From the NCBI GenBank assembly GCA_965645245.1, contig OZ287069.1:1054001-1118000 (forward strand): a stretch of DNA of 64,000 nucleotides, in the 5' to 3' direction. Position numbers and translations under genes: made by a program. Below, piece after piece: positions 3,101 through 43,955 of this stretch. The notes beneath the pieces were generated by a model. It was not told the origin of the DNA and made no database searches. It saw only the letters and a program-made list of their open reading frames with translations. Every line of letters starts with the position of its first letter. Position 1 is the first letter of the stretch. The DNA is from Massalongia carnosa. Taxonomy: Eukaryota.

Positions 3101-3905
3101 CAGCGAAAATCCAACTGGGGTTATGTGTTCATGCTGAACAATGGACCAATAAGCTGGTGTTCCAAAAGACAAACAACCGTCACATTGTCATCAACTGAAG
3201 CAGAGTATATGGCACTCACCTTAGCAGCAAAGGAGGCAACATGGCTACGTTTATTGATGACCGAACTCGGATTGATGACTTCTGATGACGGATCCCCGAC
3301 AATAAACGTGTTAAGAGGAGAAGGCACAATTGCATTGAAAGGCGACAATCAAAGCGCCATAGCACTGGCCAATAACCCCGTATTACACTCCAGGACCAAG
3401 CATATCGACATTCAGCACTACTTCATACGAAACGAGGTGCTAGAAGGAAGAATCGACCTCACCTATGTTCCGACCGAAGACATGATTGCAGATGGACTGA
3501 CAAAAACCCTCACGCACGTCAAGTTCTTCTCCTTTATCAGACAGCTCAACATGGACAAACAGACATGAGAGGTAAAGAAGTTCAACCACGGTTGAATCCA
3601 CGATGGAAACAAGTACTGGTAGGACTTGAGGGGGGGTGTTGAATATCCAATTCCTACCAGCACAATGAACACCTATCAGTACGATGAACATAGCACCTAC
3701 GGCTGGCTGCCTTAGATGGACAGATCATCTACGGAAACCGTAGATGCCGCATTAGGCTTAGTCCCAAGATAAGATAAGATCACCTCGCTTAGAAGGGGGT
3801 GACCAGTAATAGGAAAAGATTGCTGCCTAGCAACTCTTCATCCTTAACATACATACCTTTATTATTACATAGCCATATAGCCATATTCATATACCTATTT
3901 CAACA
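187..3905 (+). mobile_element. Degenerate Ty1/copia LTR retrotransposon (gag, integrase, RT, RNase H; 5' LTR not in window)
   Basis: Gag-like 'NAAEMWKILKDRF'; GAG-pre-integrase 'WHGKLGYL...CHACEMGK'; integrase core 'NSDLVG...RTDFGTE...ENGVAER'; RT 'FVDDLNIIG' and 'TRPDIAFATS'; RNase H 'SSTEAEYMA...DNQSAI...KHIDIQHYF...ADGLTK'. The INT-RT-RH order is copia-type. Many stops, frameshifts and deletions. Confidence 0.95.
3637..3905 (+). repeat. 3' LTR of the copia element (269 bp), preceded by a polypurine tract
   Basis: PPT GAGGGGGGG at 3628-3636, directly followed by TGTTGAA; ends TTCAACA at 3905 (7-bp inverted termini, TG...CA). CATGA (3906-3910) is the expected TSD half. Confidence 0.9.
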
Positions 3906-3934
3906 CATGACTTAATCTATCTTCGCAACCTGGG

Positions 3935-4265
3935 ATATTTTTATAATTTAAATATGTTAAAACTAATCGATTAATTAATCATTAGATAATTAAAAAACAA
4001 AATAATTTCAAAAATTGCTATTATCGTACATAACAAAGCAAACATGTAACAAATTAGAAATATTGATTTTCTCCGCAAAATTTAAGCGAAAGTTCAATAT
4101 TTCTGAACGATTTCATTTGAACGTGTAAGCATTCATGATTAATATGATTATAATAGATTCGAAAACTTACATCAATTAAATTTATGACAAAAATTTTTTA
4201 TTTTAAAAGTTCGAAGTTGTTTGAAGAATTTTATTTAGGTATGTTTAATTTATGAAATGCATGAG
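3935..4265. repeat. AT-rich, probably hypermutated repeat relic
   Basis: Abrupt drop in GC; almost no CC/GG while CG and CA/TG persist; no ORF. Confidence 0.55.
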
Positions 4266-32275: not shown

Positions 32276-33578
32276 CACGCGGGTGACAAAAAAAATGACA
32301 ACGTGGGCGTTTACCCCACCAAATTTTGCATGCATTCCCCCTTTTCAAGCACGATTATACATTGTTTACACAAGAAAATTTCAATTTAATAACCAGTTAT
32401 TGCACCTTCACCATCTAGTACTGCCTGCAGTCTACCAGGCATTGATCGCACCCGTTTATTGATGAATTCCTGAGAAACACGAGTCCAACCCTCCCAAATC
32501 AACTCCTTCAGAGTAGCATCATCCCAGTGTGGATATTTACGAAGATGTTGCTTAATCGGTAGCCAGCAGTTCTCGATTGGAGACAAATCAGGAGAAGACG
32601 AACAGTTAAAATAATGATTCAAATGATTGCTTTCCTTTCATGTCTTGACTGCATTTCGGGTTCTATCAGTGTCATGTCCGGAGTTCCCATCTTCTTCTAA
32701 AACGGAGTCGTCACCTCGATCAAGCCAAGACTTGACGACGGGATTGAGAATGGAGTCGATGTAGACCTGATGGGTCATCTTTTCATTGCTATTTTCAGGA
32801 ACATCGTAAAAGACGAGCTCAAACTTGAAATTATATCCAACTGCAGCCCTACAATGCATTCGTTTTCGATCTTTTTCAGGAGGAAGATCACGATGCTGAA
32901 TACAATCCAATCTATATCGAGTATCAGACTGTCTTATGATTCGTAGTTGACCTTCGGATCCATATCCAAAATGCACTTCGTCGCTGAATCGAACAAGACT
33001 TCAGTCTTCGGGTTTGAGGTATTTTTTCAGCATAACACGAGCGAACTCCATTATGCGTTCCATTGAAACGTCTTTCAGTCATTCTTTCACACATGCGAGG
33101 CATTTTTCATAGTCTAATGCAGCTTGAAGAATGCGATGCATAGTACGACCCACTACCTCAGCGTTGACCTCGAAAGCAATTTGATCCCAAGTATAACGCT
33201 TGTCTTCGAGCATTAAATCATCGTCTTGTAGAATATGATCAGCTTCTCGCACCTGCTCGCCTGTGACCTTTGATTTTCGTCCCCGAGTTTCATTTAGTTC
33301 AATAATATTGTGACGAGTTCGTGAAGAAGATCCTGCTTCAATCATTCTGTATCCAGCTCTTTCCTCAACGTTAAATTCTCTGAAAATATCACGAACATCA
33401 TGCGAAATTCCTTTCGCAACAAGAAACCTATGAGCTCCCTGTACCTTGGCCTTTTGAGGCGTATCATAGTGATATTTTCGGGGCATTTTATATAGGAATA
33501 ATGGTGAAAAGGTGGATGAGAACGAAATAAAGGGAGAAATTTTGGTGGGACGTTGTCATTTTTTTTGTCACCCGCGTG
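32276..33578 (-). mobile_element. Tc1/mariner-fold (DD38E) DNA transposon, element A, inactivated
   Basis: 29-bp perfect TIR CACGCGGGTGACAAAAAAAATGACAACGT (32276-32304 / 33550-33578); transposase 33486->32386 'RFSDEVHFG...EEDGNSGH...SPDLSPIENCW' with three in-frame TGA stops; flanks TAAGGGGG / TGAGGGGG. Confidence 0.93.
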
Positions 33579-34047
33579 TGAGGGGGTTTGGTCGGGACGG
33601 GAAGATAGGAATGAAATTGGGAATGAAATTTCTTTTTCCGTTGAACCGTTCATTCGCTCCTCTCATAACCACATCTCTAATTCTAAAATCCATTCCTATC
33701 TCTTTCAGCTCGTGTCCAATCCTCTCACCATAACCTCTCGCGCTTCACGTGTCCATCTACAAATATCCCAGAGGGGTCCACATGCTGCCTCAACAACAAA
33801 CGTGCCTTGCTACATGCGCTATGTACACGACAATCCCGGACGAGGAAAACTTTGGAAAGGAAAACAAAAAGATCCTACCTATCTACCTACCCACCTACCT
33901 TACCGTCTACTCAAGCCATGAATCCCATCGTTCCCAGCCAGCCCAACTAGTTCCGTCTACACGTTGCAACCAGAACAAGAATCAGACCGGGCCCAAAACC
34001 ATAAACGCCCCACACAACCCAGAAAATTACAATTCCGACCCAACTTC

Positions 34048-37000
34048 CTACCCTTCAACCTCCATGCTCCTTGGCCCAGACTCCTGGCAATCTCGAATGT
34101 CCTCCAACACCTCATCGAACACGACCTTCAACTCGCGCGCGACTCTCGCCCGGTTCCAGTCTCCGCGCGTGCGCCACACCTTGTCCATGAGAGCTGAGTA
34201 GATCTGTTCGAGCTGCTCGACACCGCAGCCGCTGCTCTGCAGCACGAGGTCGTCGAGCAGTTGGTCCGCGAAGGCGATGTCGGTTATGAGGTGTTTGGAA
34301 ACGGCCGCCATTGTGGGCATGGCGGTGGCGCCAACTGTACTGGCGGTGTGAAGGAGAGATTTGTGCGGAGGGGGTGGAGGAGCGGTGTCGTTGTTTAAGA
34401 GGGAGTGGATGCTCGCGTGGTAGGTGTTTGAGGGACGGGGAAATGGGGGCACGGCAGGGGTTTGGGACAAGGGTTGCGAGTAGGTTGGTTGAGATTGGGA
34501 GCTGTTGGCATTGCTGGCCTGGCCGGAACTTTGGGAACCTTGAGATATGGTCAGAGAGGTGGAGGGCTGGGAAGAGGAAATTGTTGAAACTACCTTGAGT
34601 ATCGGGGAGCTGGGAGTTGGGAGGCATGGGCTCGGGGATCATGGAGAGGTCTGGGCCTTCGTTTCTGGCATTGGAGCTTTGGGTGTTAAAGGGTCCGGAG
34701 GAACCCTGGACAGGCTTGTCGGACGAGGTGGTGGAGGCGTAGTTGATGTAGTCGTGAGGATTCGATCCTTCGGCCATGGGCGTGATTGCACTTCGCTGGG
34801 AAAGGCTTCCGGGCAGGGAACGGCGCTGCTGGAGAGAGGTAGGGCCTCCGGTGTAGGAGAATGGAAGTTGAGTCTGCGCAGATGGTCCAAAGGAGCTGTT
34901 TTGCGTTTCTCGCTCCGTTGAGGGACCTTCACTCGTAAGGTGAGTGTCGCCCTCGCCTCGAGAAGGCACCGAGGTGCCGTTGCTGTGATTGTGGCCGTGA
35001 AGATCGCTGAGGTCAGAAAGGCCAACGGACATTCCGTTGGTAAGAACGCTTCGTTGCGAAGGCTGCGACGGATTCGACGGAGTCACTGGATGATGCGGGA
35101 CGCCATTACTGATAGGCTGACCCAGGATGATAGGGCCTGACGATTCCTCGGTTGAAATTCCGCCATTCCTGGGGGGAACGTTGGATGGCATGAGCTCAAG
35201 TCTACGACCTTCCGCAGCCGCCTTTTCCTTGGCCTTCTCCACCATCTCTTTCTCCCTTTTCTTCTCTCGCTCGTAAACTGCCTCCAGCTCGGCAACCAGG
35301 ATTGGCTGGTCAGCCTCGATCGCACCCATGTCAACCTCAACGTTCGCTTGAAGCTCGTTCGCCTTCAGCAGACGCTCTTGATCCCCTACAGCCTTGGCGT
35401 CTTTAGCGAGCTTCTTGATGTCGGACACGAAATCCTTAGTTCTCTTGTAGTACCCGTTGGACAAACGCTTCTCAATCGTAACAATCTCTAGGTTGTAAAA
35501 AAATTTGCCCGTGGCTACCTCCACGAGGCCTGGTTCCCCGCGTTTGTCAACTCCCTTTTCGTATGGTCGGAAGTGGTCTTGTCTCCTCTGTTCAGGGGGC
35601 AGGTCGGTACTAACTATTCCTGGGTCGTCCTCATCGAACAGATATCTAATCTGGCTTTCATCAATCACCCCAGTCCTGAACTTCTTATATCTTAGTTTGA
35701 TCTGATCCATAATTGGCTGGATGCGCAGCTTCAGTTGATTGAGCAACTGCCTGTCCTTTTTCTTCTGAGCTTTAAGTTCAGCCTCTGATAAAATCGTAAG
35801 ATCTTTTGGCGGATCAGGAGGAACAGGCATCAGAATCTCGAATTTGCGTTTTTTGCGGTTTGCAGGCTCGGGAAAGTCTGTGGGCGAGATATTCAGGTAC
35901 TCTATTACGGCAGAAAAGTACTTGCGACGCATTGGCTAACCAGGTTTAGCATGACCGTCAAGTAATTTTTGCAAGGGAGCAAAGGCACCCACCCTGTCTG
36001 GCCTTTGAATCTCAAATGAATTCTTCTTTGAAAATCCAAACAGATCCCTAATCATCTGTGGATCCACATACTGTATCTCGCACTCGAGTATACCGAGCAA
36101 TAAAACCGGCTCAGTGGGAGCCAATGTCCGCAGCAGGCCAAGAAAGGTAGAAATCACCGTCTCGCCTACAGTTCGGTACCAGATGTCAACGTTGGGTATA
36201 TATACAACGCTGGGTTTATGCCGCCGAACTTCGGTGAAAAGCCTGATGACGGAAGCTTCGGTCGACTTGAAAATTTTTAGCAGGGACGCAGTTCGCGGTT
36301 AGAATACGTACACTGGTTGAATCGCTCAACAAAGTCGATAGATCGAACGCCTGCACATGCAATCCTTCGAAGTGATTCAAGAGAGCCCCTGCAAGGTATT
36401 GCTGACCCATGCCAGGTTTACCTCTGATTAACAGCCGTGGCCTAAAGACTCGAGACCGATCAAATTCTAAATAGGAATCAGCCAACGCGGTTGGAGTATC
36501 ATGCATTTGACCTTACCTTGCTGCATCAGTTCCGCCTTCATTCCCCTGTCATCCTCTGCGTCTTCAAACTCCGCTTCTTCCAGAGCCGTCAGACGCTTCT
36601 TTTGAGGAAGAATGTCAGCGACGATGTGCTCAATATCTGTAAGCGGATGTCGTAACAAGGGCTCAATATGTTTTGGCAGAGGGGCGGCACCGGACGAGCT
36701 TGACCGTTCGGACGAGGGAACCATTTTTTTAATGGATATCATAAAATCCTTGGCAGTAATGTTGATGGTCTCTGGTTTGATCATAAGCTTTTCGTTTGAC
36801 TTATAAATCTGGGGATATCGTCTTTGGATAGCATTCAAGGCAGCTTCCGTGCAAAGCGCACGGAGATCAGCACCACCGTAGCCCTTGGTCATTTTAGCGA
36901 TATCTTGCTTGAAGCTTGAAGCCAAGGGGGGTTCCCAGCCCTTGGTATGGATATCAAGGATGCTTCGTCGTGCTTCCGTGTTAGGTAAAGGGAAGTAGAA

Positions 37001-39411
37001 TTCTCGGTCAAATCTACCAGGACGGCGAAGAGCAGGGTCGATTGAGTCGGGTCGATTTGTAGCCCCAATGACGATGACTTGACCACGGCCATCCATTCCA
37101 TCCATGAGAGCGAGCAGGGTGGAGACTATCGAGGCATGGATTTGCTCCTGCTTGCTTGATCGTACAGGTGCGAGTCCTAGACTCATTAGAAGGACATCAA
37201 ATGACAGAGGAGTCAGTACGCACCATCGATCTCATCGAAAAATATTATGCTTGGCTGAGTCTTTCGAGCTTCATCGAATAAAAGTCTAAGCTGACGTTCC
37301 GCCTCACCGACCCATTTGCTCAAAGCGTCTGCTCCTTTTCGCATATAGAATGTTACCTTACGCCCTTGAGCGCTGACACTAGATGCTAAAGCTCGAGCAA
37401 GCAACGTTTTACCCGTGCCAGGTGGTCCATGGAACAACACCCCTCGAGGGGGAGTGACATGGAACCGCTGGAAGACCTCGGGGTATAGTAACGGAAGAGC
37501 TACCATTTCTTTCAGCTGGTCAATGTGACCTTGAAGGCCGCCGACGCTGTCAAAATTGACGTTCTGATCAACGCCGAGCGGATCGGCGTCCGCCAGCAAA
37601 TGCTTATCCTTGACTTTGCCAAGGTTTGCAGGCATCGCTGAAGCCCCTTGTAGCGGATCTGCACCATGGACCTGGCCTGCAGGAGGAGGGAAAAGACCAA
37701 AACCTGGGGGACCACTTGCCGTTGGGGTCATCCCAAAAGCACCACCTATCCCAGGAACACGCGGCCGCTGGGCAGCTGCATCATCATCACTGCTGTCGGA
37801 ATCGGCACCAGCCGCAGCACCAAGGCCACCAGGACCACCAAAGACAGGAGTTGGACCGCCTGCCCCACCAAAAGGTCCGTAGGTGGAGAAAAGGCTTCTT
37901 TGCCAAGCGCCACCGGCACCACCGCGCGCCCGGCGAGAAGGAGTGGTTGCTGAAGGTGACCCGTCATCGTCCAGTGGAAGAGCAAGGTCCGGTCGTAGGA
38001 TCCGGTAGTCGACTGCCTTTCGTTTTCTTTTCGGCTTGTCATCAAAGATTATTTCTGATCTCGTAGGTCGGCGAGGGCGACTTCCCTGGAGATCTTCCAG
38101 TTCCTCCGCCAGCTCTTCGGCAACCTCGCTGTCATGCTCATCTGATGCTGGACCCCGTTGACTCCTAGATTTACCTTTGCCGGCTTGAGCACCTCGGGTG
38201 CCAGGACTGTTGTTGTCCTCGTCAATCTGCTGGCTAGCCTTACGAGGTGAGCTTGTCGAATCTTCGGAATCCGAAATGTCTTCTTCCCCACCCTCATCAA
38301 ATCCAGGTTCGAAATCGCTGCTTTCTTCCCGGGCGCCTTTCTGGGAGCTTCGAGCTTTACAGGTCTGACGTGCGGACCGAATGGCTTCCCGGGCTGATAG
38401 ACCGCCGTTTCGACCAGGTACATCATCCACATTTTTTTCCGAAGGCGTTTTTTCGCTTTGCCTTGTAGCCCGTCGAGGTTTGCTGACTTCCTCTTCGTCA
38501 TCATCTTCTTCACCTGGCTCATCCTCGGCAGACTCCGGGATTTCTTCCAGCGGCGCATCTTCGAGAATTTCAGTATCAACTTGCGTAGCCATTTGCGTGT
38601 CTGTCTTGATAGCAGGTTGCGCATCGTGAGGTTCGTCCTCGTCCTCGTCATCCCGGCTAGCTGCAACCTCCGTCGGTTGTTGCTCTTTCGTTCCAACCGG
38701 GCTCTCTTCGTCTTGTTCAAAGACTGCACTTGTTGATGGCTTTTTGAGGCCTTTGCTCCCTCTCTTTGGCCGTGGGACATCCACTTCTGGGCTTCGTGTG
38801 CCTTGATGCACCGGCACCGCATGGCGACCGGAATCTGTCAGTTTCAGAATCGTTTCGGAATCGTCGTGGGCGATGCGACTGCTTCGTCGCGGTTCAGAAA
38901 CATGGACCTCCGAAGAAGCTCTGAGGCCAGTCCCCACGCTACCGCTACGCGCTCTCACGCTTCGTCTTGTGGGAGCGGGATTCGGCTGGGTTGTCCCCAC
39001 GTTGAGTTTCAGCACAAGTGACTTGGTCTTTCCCTTCTTCTTTGGCGTTGCAATTTTCTGGGTTGTCGAGTCCGGTGGGTCTTCAATTGAATTCTCAGTC
39101 TCGGAGTCTTGATACACCGGACGCTGCTTGGTGGCTTTGCGCTTCGGCCGTCCAGTCCGCGCATCGAGCTCAGGTTCCTCCTCGTCTAGTTTCCTATCAA
39201 AGGAAGCTTCGCTGATATCACTGTCATCGCTTATCTCCTCCGATCCGTCGTCATCATACATCCTGCGTTGCCTTTTACGGGACGGTTTGCCCTGCTGGCT
39301 TCGGGAAGGTTTGGCTCTCGCAGTCCTGGAGGCAGCTCCATAAGTCGAATCGCCGGAATCGGACTTGAGAGGATCGAATTCCTCCGCTTTACGCTTGGGT
39401 CTGCTAGGCAT
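34048..39411 (-). CDS. YTA7: AAA+ ATPase histone chaperone Yta7/Abo1/ATAD2, multi-exon
   Basis: Acidic N-terminus; 'GPPGTGKT', 'IIFFDEID', '[22 protein letters not shown]'; second AAA 'GMGQQYLA'; bromodomain-like 'IEKRLSNGYY'; C-terminal 'SGCGVEQLEQI'. Confidence 0.94.
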
Positions 39412-40989
39412 GATGTTGGGTTGGTACGAGAGCAAGGTTTGAGCCTTCCGGTGTAGTCTGTTCTTAGTCAGAAGGATTTATGGGGAACGTAGAAAGATCG
39501 AGAGAATTCACTTACGGGTGGGAATTAAAAGGAAGAGGCCCTTGATTGCGTCGCACGCATAGTTTCCGGGGGGAACAATACCATCCAAATTATCGGCTCT
39601 ACATACTCCGGCGATGAGATGACAGTTGAGGGTTGAAGGCGAGCTGAACCACTGCGACCGGTGTTTCTGCGATTCAAAGGATCGAAAATCGGGTGTGGTA
39701 GATGATGGAGTTCTGGGAGAAAAATAAGGCTCGTAGGCTAGAGGGTGATGGAGATGGAGATGGATGGATTCAATGGACGAGCGCTGGATCAACAAGTTGG
39801 GGCTTCTCCATTTGTTTTGCTCCTCGCTTAGCTCAAAGTAAGCTAGCTGGGGGGCTAAGCACTAGGCAGGCGTTTCGCATGGAAACCAAACCCTGAACCC
39901 ACAGTCTGGTCACCTGAGGCGCAATATCCTCAAATCTTTTCACTTCCGTCCCCAGTTTTCGAGCGCAACTCGCAGGAAGAGATGATGCGAAAGACGACGT
40001 GAGATGGTCAGATTCAGGCATGTCAACTCGTTGATACGCAATCTTTATCGTACTAATGATGAACCTCGACCTTTCTCGCTATTGATATCCTTCGAGTCAG
40101 CTCGACGGCATGTCTCCATATCCATAGATGCCATTGATGGCCTACCGCAGGTACGGGATGAGGCTTAAAAGCTTATCATGCTCATCGTCGTGGCGTTGTG
40201 TGGGGGGATCCCGCCGTCTACAGTCACGTGATATTTCATTCCTTTGGTTTTAGGTTAGAATCTTCTGCCAACCCCTCAACATCGTTGACGTCTTCACTTC
40301 ATGTGTTTATTTATGTCCACTTACGTACCAAGGTCAAGGACATTTTGAATTTCTCGCAGCTCGAAGAAAAGAAGCAGCCTTCACCATGTTTCAGGGACTG
40401 ATTCGCCGGTCTTAGATAAGGGTATACGTGGTTGTTTTGTTTTGACTCCGAGTTTCCAAGTTTCTCCGATTGATCTCGCTTCGTTTCAGCGTTATCAAAA
40501 ACGTAGAAGTGCTCGTCGGCACCGATCAATTAAAACGTCAATTCAGCGGCCAAGCCTTTGATCACATTCAGCAAAACCTCATACCTGGAGTTATCCATAA
40601 CGCTTTCATTTCTCGACAGCGAACGTAGATATGGATCTTAATCTGAAGATGCAGTGGCTGGCCCTTAGCAGTGTCAAAGCCATCGATTGGACAGGCTAGC
40701 CTTGCCAACTGGGTCTTACCTTGACCTGAGGGTAGTGACATGCTGCAACCCTCCATGAGGCCAAAAGGACCCTACTCGTAGTGTCACCCCCATGTGCAAC
40801 ACGCTAATACCACGGCAAAACGACTCCAATAACACTCGAGGATTGGGGAATACGACTCTTTTAGCTATCTACTTACTGATTAGCGATGGGGGTACTCTAG
40901 AGGATTTGATTGCTCGGACCATTCACTGTAATCCTCTAGTCTTCAAACCATGACTAGATCCGGCATAGTTGGGACCAAGTATTGCCAAG

Positions 40990-42292
40990 CACGCGGGGAC
41001 CAAAAAAGTTGCGACACCAAAATTTTCACCCCACCAAACTCCTATCAAAACATCGATTTATTTACATCAGAAACTGCTACTAATGACCTGTCATTCTTCC
41101 ATCACCGTCTAAAACGTCCTCCAGTCGTTGGGGCATACTTAATACCAAAGTATTAATGAATTCCTGAGAAACATGATCCCTCCAGCCCGTTTGAATGGCC
41201 TCAATCGTACTCTTATCATCCCAATGATCTGATTTTGACAGCCATTGTTTTACTGGCTGCCAGCAGTTCTCAATGACGGAAAAATCGGGAGATTTAGGAG
41301 CATTCAAGTAGTACTTTAGCCCATGTTCTTCCTTCCATTTTCGAACAATGTTGTTGTTGTTTGCAGAACCGTGACCAGAATCACCATCTTCTTCCAAAAC
41401 AAATCGTTCACCGACCTCGAGACATGGCTTAATAACAGGCTCCAAAATAGAGTCAATATAGACTCGTTGACTCATTTTCCCATTGTTATTTCCTGGAACC
41501 TCGTAAAAGTACAAATCGGACTTGTAATTCCACCCGACCTTAGCCCAACAATGATAACGTTTTTGCACTGATTCTGGGGTTTCTTTCCCTTCCTGCATAC
41601 AATCAAAGCAGTATCTTTCACCCGGACGACGTATGATTGGTAATTGGCGTTGAGGTCCCTGTCCAAAATGCACTTCATCACTGAAGCGTACCAGCTTGCA
41701 GTCCTCAAGAGTGTACGTGCATTTCATTTCTCTGGCAAATGTACGTCGTTTGGCACGTATATTCGGAGACAGCCATGTTCTCGTGCATGCTAAACACTTG
41801 TGATACTCCAAGTCCTGCATAGCTCTTCGAACGGTATGCCAATGTACGTGATTTGCCCCTATGAGACCCACTTCCGCAGCTAATTCATGCCACGTTTTAG
41901 CTCGTGCTTGTATGCCTCCATTTTCTATGATCTCCTGCATCTTTTGAATGTACTCAGCTGCTATGAGTTTCTTTCTTCCTCGCGTTTCCTGCCTGTTTGA
42001 ATTGTTATGAAGACGTCGAGAAGAATCATCTTTGAGCATTGCCCATCCCCTGCTCCGTTCCACTCCAAAATGACGAAAAACGTCGCTTTTGAAATAGGAT
42101 ATGCCGTGCGCGTTGTTAAATTCGCACAAAGCTTGTACTTTGGCTTTAGTAGGTGTAGAGTACTCATGTTGAAAATCATGAGACTCTAACTGAGGTGTTT
42201 GTTGACGTTGCAAGATGATTGAATTGTTTGATGATAAATGAGTTTTGGTGGAGTGAAAATTTTGGTGTCGCAACTTTTTTGGTCCCCGCGTG
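40990..42292 (-). mobile_element. Tc1/mariner-fold (DD38E) DNA transposon, element B, uninterrupted ORF
   Basis: 49-bp TIR with one mismatch, CACGCGGGGACCAAAAAAGTTGCGACACCAAAATTTTCAC(C/T)CCACCAAA (40990-41038 / 42244-42292); open transposase frame to 41080 'RFSDEVHFG...EEDGDSGH...SPDFSVIENCW'; direct repeat CCAAG at 40985-40989 and 42293-42297. Confidence 0.95.
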
Positions 42293-42469
42293 CCAAGCTA
42301 AACGGCGTATGTACTTCGTACATAGCGTATTTATTGACCAAGCTTAGACTGAGATTGTCATGTATCTCCCTCGCGCCTATGAAAATCACCCACTTCCCAC
42401 GAACCCACACTCGTGTCGCCCAGAAAGTGCTCCGGGTTTTATTTTTAGTCTATATAAACCAACCCGAAG

Positions 42470-42772
42470 AAAAAAAAACCGAGTAATTCTGAGATACACG
42501 AGCACACAAAAGAGCTGATGAAAAGAGTGGGGAACAGGCACCCTCAGTGAAAGATCCGCCCAGCGTGGTCTTTAGATAGACAACAGCCTTTCAGATATAT
42601 AGCATCTGAAATCAAACGTGAAATACATACCGAGAGACATTTCCACGAATTGAGAAACCATCAAATGATCGTGGTAGACATATGCTAGAATATGTAAACT
42701 CAAAAGGCCCCAAGTCAAACGGCGTCGAAACCACCCTCGAATCAAAACACGTTCCAATCGAGCCAGACGCCA
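42470..42772 (-). ncRNA. Candidate Pol III structured ncRNA with tRNA-like leader
   Basis: A-box-like TGGCTCGATTGG, B-box-like GGTTTCGACGCC, several hairpins and a T9 run. No family recognised. Confidence 0.3.
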
Positions 42773-42884
42773 ACAAGTACATACATAATGCCAAATACCC
42801 CACCCTCATCCCACCCCCACCTCCCCCCCTCCCTCCCAACTTCCCTCCCTCCCAACTTCTCCCCTCCCCAAACGACCCAAAACA

Positions 42885-43955
42885 ATGGCTCCCCAAACAC
42901 CTCCAGCAACAACAGCAACCACAACCACAACCGCCAGACCCCCACTCCCACTCACCTCCCCTACCCCCTCTGTTTCCGCCCCCCCACCTCCCCTCTCCCA
43001 CACGCCCCCGCTCCTGGTCAAAAAGCTTTCCCCCGACGCCAGGGCCCCGACGCGGGGGAGCGCCTTCGCCGCCGGATATGACTTGTACAGCGCGCGGGAG
43101 GCGGTGATTGCGGCGAGGGGGAAGGGCATGGTGGAGACGGATTTGGCGATTGCGGTGCCGGAAGGGACTTGTGCGTTTCGTTCCAGTTTCCTTGTTTTCC
43201 CCAATTCACTCCGTTCCGTCCCCCTTCCACACATCTACACAGCAGGAGGGTTCGTCAGGAAAAAGCAAAAGCCGTGCCCCAGCTCAAGGCGAATGAATAA
43301 CCTCCCCCCCCCCCCCCAAAACCCCCAAGGCGTTCAAATTAAAAAAAGGGCGAAAACGTCCGCTAGGGGGCAGATCTTTTGTCCCCATAACGAACGAATT
43401 CCCCCCCCCCAGCCAGCTAGCTAGTCAATCCATCAAGCTAACTTCCCCCCTCCCCTCTCTCTCTGAACCCCTAGACGGCCGCATCGCCCCCCGCAGCGGG
43501 CTCGCGGTCAAGAATTTCATCGACACAGGCGCGGGGGTCATCGACGCCGACTACAGAGGCCCAGTCAAGGTCCTGCTGTTCAACCACTCGGAGGTGGATT
43601 TTCACGGTACGAAGTCTCCGTTGTTCGATATCAACTTCCCCCTGCCCTAGGCAAAACAAGATAAAAACCCCCTCGCTAATACACTCCGCCCCTCCTTTGC
43701 CTATAGTTCAACCAGGCGATCGTATAGCGCAACTCGTTCTCGAGCGTGTAAGCGTTGCCGCCCCTCTCCCTTTCTACGAAATGTACACTACGCACCAGAC
43801 GGAAAAATCGGGACAAAACGAAGAAGAAGAAAAAAGGAAAAGGAGAAAGGTGCTAATTGGTCCGCGAGGAACAGATCTATACGCCGGAGGTGCTGGTAGT
43901 GGAGGAGCTGGAGGCTAGTGTTAGGGGCGCCGGGGGGTTTGGGAGTACGGGGTAG
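42885..43955 (+). CDS. DUT1: dUTP pyrophosphatase, 4 exons
   Basis: '[13 protein letters not shown]', '[10 protein letters not shown]', '[11 protein letters not shown]', '[11 protein letters not shown]', '[10 protein letters not shown]'. Confidence 0.95.

Follow-up and report, generated by a model that had tools for sequence, protein, structure and literature searches.

A feature shared by IS630-Tc1-mariner (ITm) elements, named as such in the excerpted text of PMC7325037, is insertion at TA with a 2-bp target duplication. Can a transposase of this group make a different kind of duplication? The question is raised by a 1303-bp element at positions 40990-42292 of a 64,000-nucleotide stretch of the Massalongia carnosa genome (assembly GCA_965645245.1, contig OZ287069.1, positions 1,054,001 to 1,118,000; hereafter the window). 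The element carries a Tc1-like transposase gene between inverted ends that have no TA beside them. We conclude that it is very probably a copy of a cut-and-paste DNA transposon from a large ascomycete Tc1-like family that duplicates 5 bp of target and not TA, the window copy being nearly intact but non-functional. An initial annotation of the window had proposed a fungal ITm lineage making 5-bp non-TA duplications at CAC...GTG ends, and this proposal is upheld by transposase homology and by a tally of insertions among relatives.

The inverted ends of the window element read CACGCGGG...CCCGCGTG. Its repeat arms at 40989-41038 and 42244-42293 pair over 50 nt with 98% complementarity; taken from CAC (40990) to GTG (42292) they are 49 nt long, the length first given for the terminal inverted repeats (TIRs). 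The left TIR (40990-41038, plus strand) starts CACGCGGGGACCAAAAAAG, and the right TIR (42244-42292, minus strand) has one mismatch to it, both being delimited by inverted-repeat and end scans. The 29-nt end occurs at two sites only in the 64-kb window, which are the two ends themselves, and a match was found in 0 of 100 shuffles. The junctions of flank and element (slash) are TATTGCCAAG/CACGCGGGG on the left and CCCCGCGTG/CCAAGCTAAA on the right. Read directly, neither end adjoins TA, as claimed at the outset, and CCAAG stands on both sides, at 40985-40989 and 42293-42297. The CCAAG repeat of the initial annotation is therefore present, but the full direct repeat, at 40983-40990 and 42291-42298, is 8 bp long (TGCCAAGC) and extends into the inverted repeat. 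The resulting ambiguity of the boundary was settled by the tally of relatives, in favor of CAC...GTG ends and a CCAAG duplication.

For this comparison 207 stretches of metagenome contigs matched, 112 of them encode relatives, and 80 loci with 34-58% identity to the query were kept. A first inverted-repeat scan gave ends starting CACGCGGG at most loci, with the variants CAAG, CTCG, and CACC, and 54 ends yielded the family consensus CACGCGGGTGACAAAAAAAGCGGG. Each side of the gene was then aligned to the 20-nt end consensus in 81 sources (the 80 loci and the window), with criteria set beforehand: both end scores at least 17, an alignment extending to base 1, a 12-nt flank per side, and a length of 1000-2000. 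Seven of the 81 sources had too little flank and 30 passed, which became 27 distinct insertions once repeated sightings were merged. In 17 of these 27 insertions the 5 nt before CAC were identical to those after GTG; four of the five positions agreed in one further case, three in two cases, and at most two in seven. As for other lengths at this boundary, three insertions had a perfect 2-nt repeat and one a perfect 3-nt repeat, while none had a perfect repeat of 4, 6, or 7 nt. TA stood on both sides in none of the 27 insertions and on one side in a single one. When the left and right flanks of unrelated insertions were paired as a control, a perfect 5-nt match arose in 4 of 702 pairs (0.57%). 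The pentamers are not the same at different insertions and are repeated directly (ACCCC, CCTGC, GCTGG, CGTAA, GTACG, and GCAAG, among others), so they represent duplicated target and do not belong to the inverted ends. The flanks of related insertions, which the initial annotation had suggested inspecting, thus speak for the 5-bp duplication that it had claimed; the claim was right by virtue of the relatives and not of the window copy. Between the proteins of duplication-positive elements identity goes down to 31%, with a median of 46% (253 pairs), and such low identity argues that the 5-bp duplication is an old, clade-wide trait of a large ascomycete family.

The insertion sites also share a pattern. 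A logo was built from 23 sites, 17 delimited automatically and six with variant ends delimited by hand (L004, L028, L032, L034, L042, and L053), the latter being used for the logo only and not for the frequency of duplications. An A two bases before the duplication was found in 19 of the 23 sites (binomial p = 6e-8). Within the duplication, C occupied position 1 in 16 sites and position 2 in 16, and the central base was A or T in 18; beyond it, +1 was C, +2 was T, and +3 was A in 15 sites each. The G+C content of the duplication was 68%, against 47% in the flanks (17 sites). In this small metagenome sample the sites fit a palindrome-like TAG/CCWGG/CTA, and in gene orientation the window site reads TAG/CTTGG/CAA. 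The control rate of 0.57%, compared with 0.1% expected for random pentamers, likewise points to a shared target preference.

The transposase gene lies on the minus strand, where a stop-to-stop frame of 405 codons (41080-42297) is uninterrupted. Supported by the reading frame, Pfam, profile, model, and fold, the coding region proper comprises 377 codons at 41083-42213, followed by the stop codon at 41080-41082. The protein (P0001) contains the motifs FSDE, EEDGD, and SPDFSVIENCW, with 38 residues between D304 and E343; the catalytic codons, with coordinates derived by hand, are D 41677-41679, D 41386-41388, and E 41269-41271 on the minus strand. Pfam DDE_3 matched with an E-value of 5.2e-11 (43 bits, cut-off 28.6), HTH_Tnp_Tc3_2 stayed below threshold (20.6 bits, cut-off 31.5), and PF01498 is precomputed on many relatives. 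A profile of 30 family sequences compared with solved structures found the catalytic domain of Sleeping Beauty (5cr4, E 7.5e-16) and placed the family motifs SDE, DxD, and SPDxxIEN over its catalytic D, D, and E; the only other match at E of 1 or below was an unrelated dehydrogenase (0.074). An AlphaFold2 model built from 41 sequences (mean pLDDT 80.2) shows two N-terminal three-helix bundles, at 22-60 and 86-131 with an RGRKK stretch between them, followed by an alpha/beta catalytic domain. Among 21 Foldseek matches at E of 0.001 or below, full-length Mos1 was at the top (4u7b, E 3e-9, 377 columns; also 5hoo, 3hot, and 3hos), next came Sleeping Beauty 5cr4 (TM 0.72-0.74, normalized by target) and SETMAR, and retroviral integrases were well behind; the ESM Atlas returned generic Tc1-like clusters only. 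The ITm core, the uninterrupted frame, the 38-residue spacing, and the lack of an in-frame ATG ahead of the helix-turn-helix region, all claimed in the initial annotation, were thus recovered.

Three features of the ITm branch are accordingly found here. The window element and related loci have a single transposase gene between TIRs; sequence and model further indicate an RNase-H-fold DDE catalytic domain with the Tc1-type signature, and an N-terminal bipartite helix-turn-helix region. The fourth, TA insertion with a 2-bp duplication, is missing in the tally, and the element, as judged from its protein, is therefore placed in the Tc1-like branch of ITm by transposase homology only.

The family is broad. 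A word-indexed protein search retrieved 261 relatives at E of 0.001 or below among 1297 candidates, the named ones coming from Dothideomycetes, Sordariomycetes, and Leotiomycetes and being annotated as 'Tc1-like transposase DDE domain' or 'HMG box protein'. The latter label, which public annotation gives to P0090 and P0122-P0126 (members from Pyrenophora tritici-repentis, Colletotrichum truncatum, and Rutstroemia), is apparently a wrong name for a transposase that has been passed on between records. An exhaustive profile search of 1.84 billion representatives gave 474 matches at E of 1e-30 or below, 4,899 at 1e-10, and 17,069 at 0.001. Because a 368-aa protein of Pyrenophora tritici-repentis is identical on 14 contigs, its sequence suggests recent activity of the family in that species. 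A 16-mer of the end was also compared with bacterial and archaeal genomes; it occurred at 120 loci, about the number expected by chance, and none of the 120 encoded a relative (tblastn).

Of 120 aligned family proteins, 119 extend over both the D and E positions, and 108 of these have the D-D-E triad. The spacing between D and E was 37 in 58 proteins, 38 in 45, and another value in 16. The DD38E label of the initial annotation is hence correct for the window copy; since 58 of the 119 relatives are DD37E, it is not a trait that defines the lineage. Behind the second Asp the family has DxDSGHG and then the 3-4 extra residues that give the spacing of 37 or 38. A set of four cysteines is jointly conserved in 106 of the 119 proteins. 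They form one CxxC (C168 and C171) just ahead of the catalytic domain and another (C230 and C233), about 58 residues away, in the region aligned to the clamp loop of Sleeping Beauty; the codons in the window, again derived by hand, are 41794-41796, 41785-41787, 41608-41610, and 41599-41601 on the minus strand. To our knowledge no such set of four occurs in Sleeping Beauty, Tc1, or Mos1, and it may make up a metal site of the linker and clamp-loop region.

Several observations weigh against a 5-bp duplicating family. On its own, the window copy accommodates equally well a 3-bp duplication with GCACG ends (CAA), a 5-bp one with CACG ends (CCAAG), or a 7-bp one with ACG ends (GCCAAGC). All comparison loci are metagenome contigs, presumably fungal, and the six hand-delimited sites in the logo were picked after their duplications had been seen. 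Ten of the 27 insertions lack a perfect duplication, which may be due to decay, to copies having recombined, or to chimeras among the metagenome contigs; several of the ten have a target-like half-site on one side (CCTGG on the left in three), as would fit recombined copies or an assembly gone chimeric at repeats. Empty sites were not recovered: among the contigs of the four sequencing runs described below none bridges the window site, and reconstructed empty sites for 29 insertions matched none of the DNA searched, the lone match being spurious and due to a neighboring mini-element. Finally, the flanks of the sister copies in the same organism are visible only as a mixed consensus, with an agreement of about 0.6.

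The most ordinary alternative is that of a TA-inserting Tc1/mariner element in which CCAAG is a chance repeat or belongs to the ends. It draws on the ambiguous boundary of the window copy and on the literature, since TA is the rule in the excerpted accounts of fungal ITm elements: 'invariably' for Dici (PMC13469147), and TA likewise in Sclerotinia (PMC4188875), Cochliobolus (PMC4112212), and the Trem elements of Paracoccidioides (PMC2836289), where the target of TremH, a different, 525-aa DDD element, 'could not be defined'. Perfect but varying 5-bp repeats in 17 of 27 insertions, compared with 0.6% of the controls, and TA on both sides in none make this explanation very improbable, as does the direct and not inverted orientation of repeats such as ACCCC, CGTAA, and GCAAG, which places them outside the ends. 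The ends have a second possible interpretation, namely that a member of the Transib/RAG superfamily has been misread as Tc1-like. The Transib pattern is one of CAC...GTG ends with a GC-rich duplication of 5 bp, and the likeness to Transib/RAG pointed out in the initial annotation does hold for the ends and the length of the duplication. It stops there, as the transposase is unrelated. The protein has no RAG1-type match in Pfam, profile, or fold comparisons and shows instead DDE_3 with a weak HTH_Tnp_Tc3_2, as well as profile and fold matches to Sleeping Beauty, Mos1, and SETMAR; moreover, a survey reports in its excerpted text that Transib is absent from fungi (PMC5751038). Misassignment of this kind is barely credible, and judged from sequence and model the resemblance to Transib is convergent.

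A different objection accepts the biology and concerns its novelty: the family and its 5-bp duplication may already be catalogued, for example as a fungal 'Mariner' in Repbase or Dfam. We regard this as quite conceivable, although somewhat less probable than the opposite. The family is very common, with its 474 representatives at the strictest threshold, and multi-copy in a well-studied genome, that of Pyrenophora tritici-repentis, so that curators have probably met it. On the other hand, a search of the full-text literature, with Repbase, Dfam, and subscription journals outside its range, found no Tc1-like family with a 5-bp duplication. Named members (KDN61748, PQE31529, EDU42948, EDU45945, and XP_001942120, representing four family proteins) are also absent from the superfamily tree in supplement file 4 of PMC7325037.

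An ascomycete Tc1-like family with a 5-bp duplication can be set beside the known systems that it resembles. Sleeping Beauty and Tc1 have the same domain order, the motifs SDE, DxD, and SPDxxxIEN, and ends starting with CA, and Sleeping Beauty 5cr4 is a close match both by sequence, where it is the closest solved structure, and by fold. They differ in their TA target, 2-bp duplication, and 34-residue spacing, compared with 37-38 in the family; after the second Asp Sleeping Beauty has DNDPKH, while the family has DxDSGHG, a longer loop, and the four conserved cysteines. Tc4/Tc5 (TNA), the ciliate TBE/Tec elements (ANT), and Zator (3 bp) are related to ITm and have duplications that are not plain TA. 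Their 3-bp duplications are centered on A/T, whereas that of the family is 5 bp long and GC-rich, with TA steps outside it. Intruder, a monophyletic DD38E group of animals and the sister group of DD34E/Tc1, shares the spacing of 38 with the window copy, but this spacing varies within the window family, and according to the excerpted text of PMC7731502 a TBLASTN survey that took in all kingdoms recovered Intruder from animals only. The alignment therefore gives no reason to read the DD38E spacing as a link to Intruder.

Among named fungal elements the closest is probably impala, from Fusarium oxysporum, with mimp as its miniature form; a second protein search, from the distant representative P0274, gave 28 matches, none of them named impala. 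Impala is about 1.3 kb long, and both impala and mimp insert at TA. Impala is a fungal Tc1-like element as well, but its spacing is given differently in the literature, as DD37E in PMC7325037 and under DD34E in PMC7731502. In the mimp/impala end motif as published (PMC5579170, excerpt), positions 1, 2, 6-9, and 13-16 are matched by 48-54 of the 54 family ends, while positions 3-5 and 11-12 are not; at 3-5 the family has CGC and impala, with its CAGTG-type ends, GTR. We treat this overlap as a lead only, as A-rich Tc1-type ends share much of the pattern. Impala-type ends as defined by the mimp motif flank none of the 80 loci, where only scattered matches with one or two mismatches were seen. 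One of these is a 16-mer at L015:1196 (CAGTAGGGTGCAATAT), with one mismatch to the motif and 125 nt upstream of the family element in L015; this 16-mer could be a remnant of a TA-type relative.

From the chemistry of DDE transposases, a transposase dimer would bind the conserved inner part of the ends and excise the element. The two 3' ends would then be joined to target phosphates 5 bp apart instead of 2 bp, and repair of the gaps would yield the 5-bp duplication. The altered geometry of target capture that the initial annotation proposed is an inference drawn from this stagger. More speculatively, the change could stem from remodeling of regions that contact the target in Sleeping Beauty and Mos1. 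One candidate is the loop after the second Asp, where DxDSGHG and the 3-4 extra residues take the place of the DNDPKH of Sleeping Beauty; the other is the clamp-loop region with its family-conserved CxxC...CxxC set. Residues that influence the target choice of Sleeping Beauty are H187 of the clamp loop as well as P247 and K248, which follow the second Asp at a distance of three and four residues; Mos1 flips target adenines (PMC8934666, excerpt). The most far-reaching version holds that a Tc1-like clade across filamentous ascomycetes joins its ends 5 bp apart at TAG/CCWGG/CTA, with TA steps just outside the duplication, that a possibly zinc-binding Cys4 module and the longer DxDSGHG loop cause this, and that the trait is undescribed. 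As a whole we consider this proposal tentative and rather doubtful.

To follow the element in the organism, four sequencing runs (X1, X2, X4, and X5) were mapped on window positions 39500-43800; X5, from organism B, covers the flanks in patches. The element was about five times as deep as its flanks, with 126 against 23-29 in X1, 661 against 126-143 in X2, and about 3300-4000 against 835 in X4, and contigs leave it at 40989 or 40990 into unlike sequence, that is, at other insertion sites. Between the window and a 1210-bp contig representing the sister copies there are 14 base differences. At plus-strand position 42213 the window has A, while all covering contigs of X1, X2, X4, and X5 have T, giving ATG on the minus strand; the TTG at 42211-42213 is hence a mutated start codon, as the initial annotation had guessed. 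Since this read-level difference explains the missing ATG, the idea that a frameshift or a short intron had caused it was dropped. Applied together, the 14 differences cause nine residue changes and no stop (window to sister: L29M, the start, L57V, Q103P, C200W, P220R, L331F, P334D, F339L, and T383S), and at positions 200, 220, 331, and 339 as well as at the start the sister copies carry the residue conserved in the family. Repeat-induced point mutation as the source of the differences was likewise discarded, as most are not C>T or G>A. The comparison indicates that the window copy is nearly intact but non-functional and decaying, while about five sister copies in the same organism apparently encode an intact 377-aa version with ATG and the conserved residues. 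The active or reconstructable copy envisaged at the outset thus has candidates.

Further traces of mobility were observed. A derivative of 65 bp that is made up of nothing but the two ends (joint 41021>42260, that is, 40990-41021 plus 42260-42292) is present at single-copy depth in X1, X2, and X4, a form as would be expected from interrupted gap repair after excision; similar mini-elements are found at L036:240-318 (79 bp) and L031:2313-2393 (81 bp). The X1 run, from a lichen-metagenome strain, shows several differences from the window in the flanks, yet its contigs run from both flanks into the ends, and the window insertion therefore predates the divergence of X1.

The window holds a second, degenerate family member of a different subfamily, also 1303 bp long, at 32276-33578 on the minus strand, identified by its ends, ORF pieces, and protein identity. 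It has perfect 29-nt inverted ends starting CACGCGGGTGACAAAA, and its minus-strand open reading frame (ORF), which starts MPRKYHYDTPQKAKVQ, is broken into at least three pieces; across the N-terminal 135 residues the protein is 38% identical to P0001. AGGGGG stands on both sides, offset by an extra TG at the right end (33579-33580). An extra CA/TG between duplication and end was also seen on the left of L024 and of L036:240-318, and in these three cases the duplication is perfect (5 bp, or 5-6 bp in the window element) only if the dinucleotide is counted as part of the element. The dinucleotide could be a duplicated terminal one or an old footprint.

As to its surroundings, the element at 40990-42292 lies between a minus-strand AAA-ATPase gene and a plus-strand dUTPase-like ORF, which are divergently oriented. 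The AAA-ATPase ORF spans 36470-39477 and is apparently split by an intron near 37213-37231, and the dUTPase-like fragment is at 42789-43421. The left flank at 40796-40939 had about 1.65 times the single-copy depth in X2 and X4, with one contig carrying a 1-nt deletion at 40845; part of it may have further copies in the genome.

Targeting of TA, with its 2-bp duplication, serves both to recognize and to define the ITm group, and annotation pipelines depend on TA. In a large fungal clade that, by its sequences, is apparently still active, elements with 5-bp duplications are liable to be mis-delimited or missed by TA-based tools. The family further indicates that the stagger of strand transfer can shift inside one superfamily, and a comparison of the clade with relatives that use TA opens the structural basis of stagger and of target choice to direct tests. 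If our reading is true, close relatives with different staggers would provide a natural system for studying how a DDE dimer sets its stagger and chooses its target, and the family would be a possible source of GC-targeting Tc1-type vectors.

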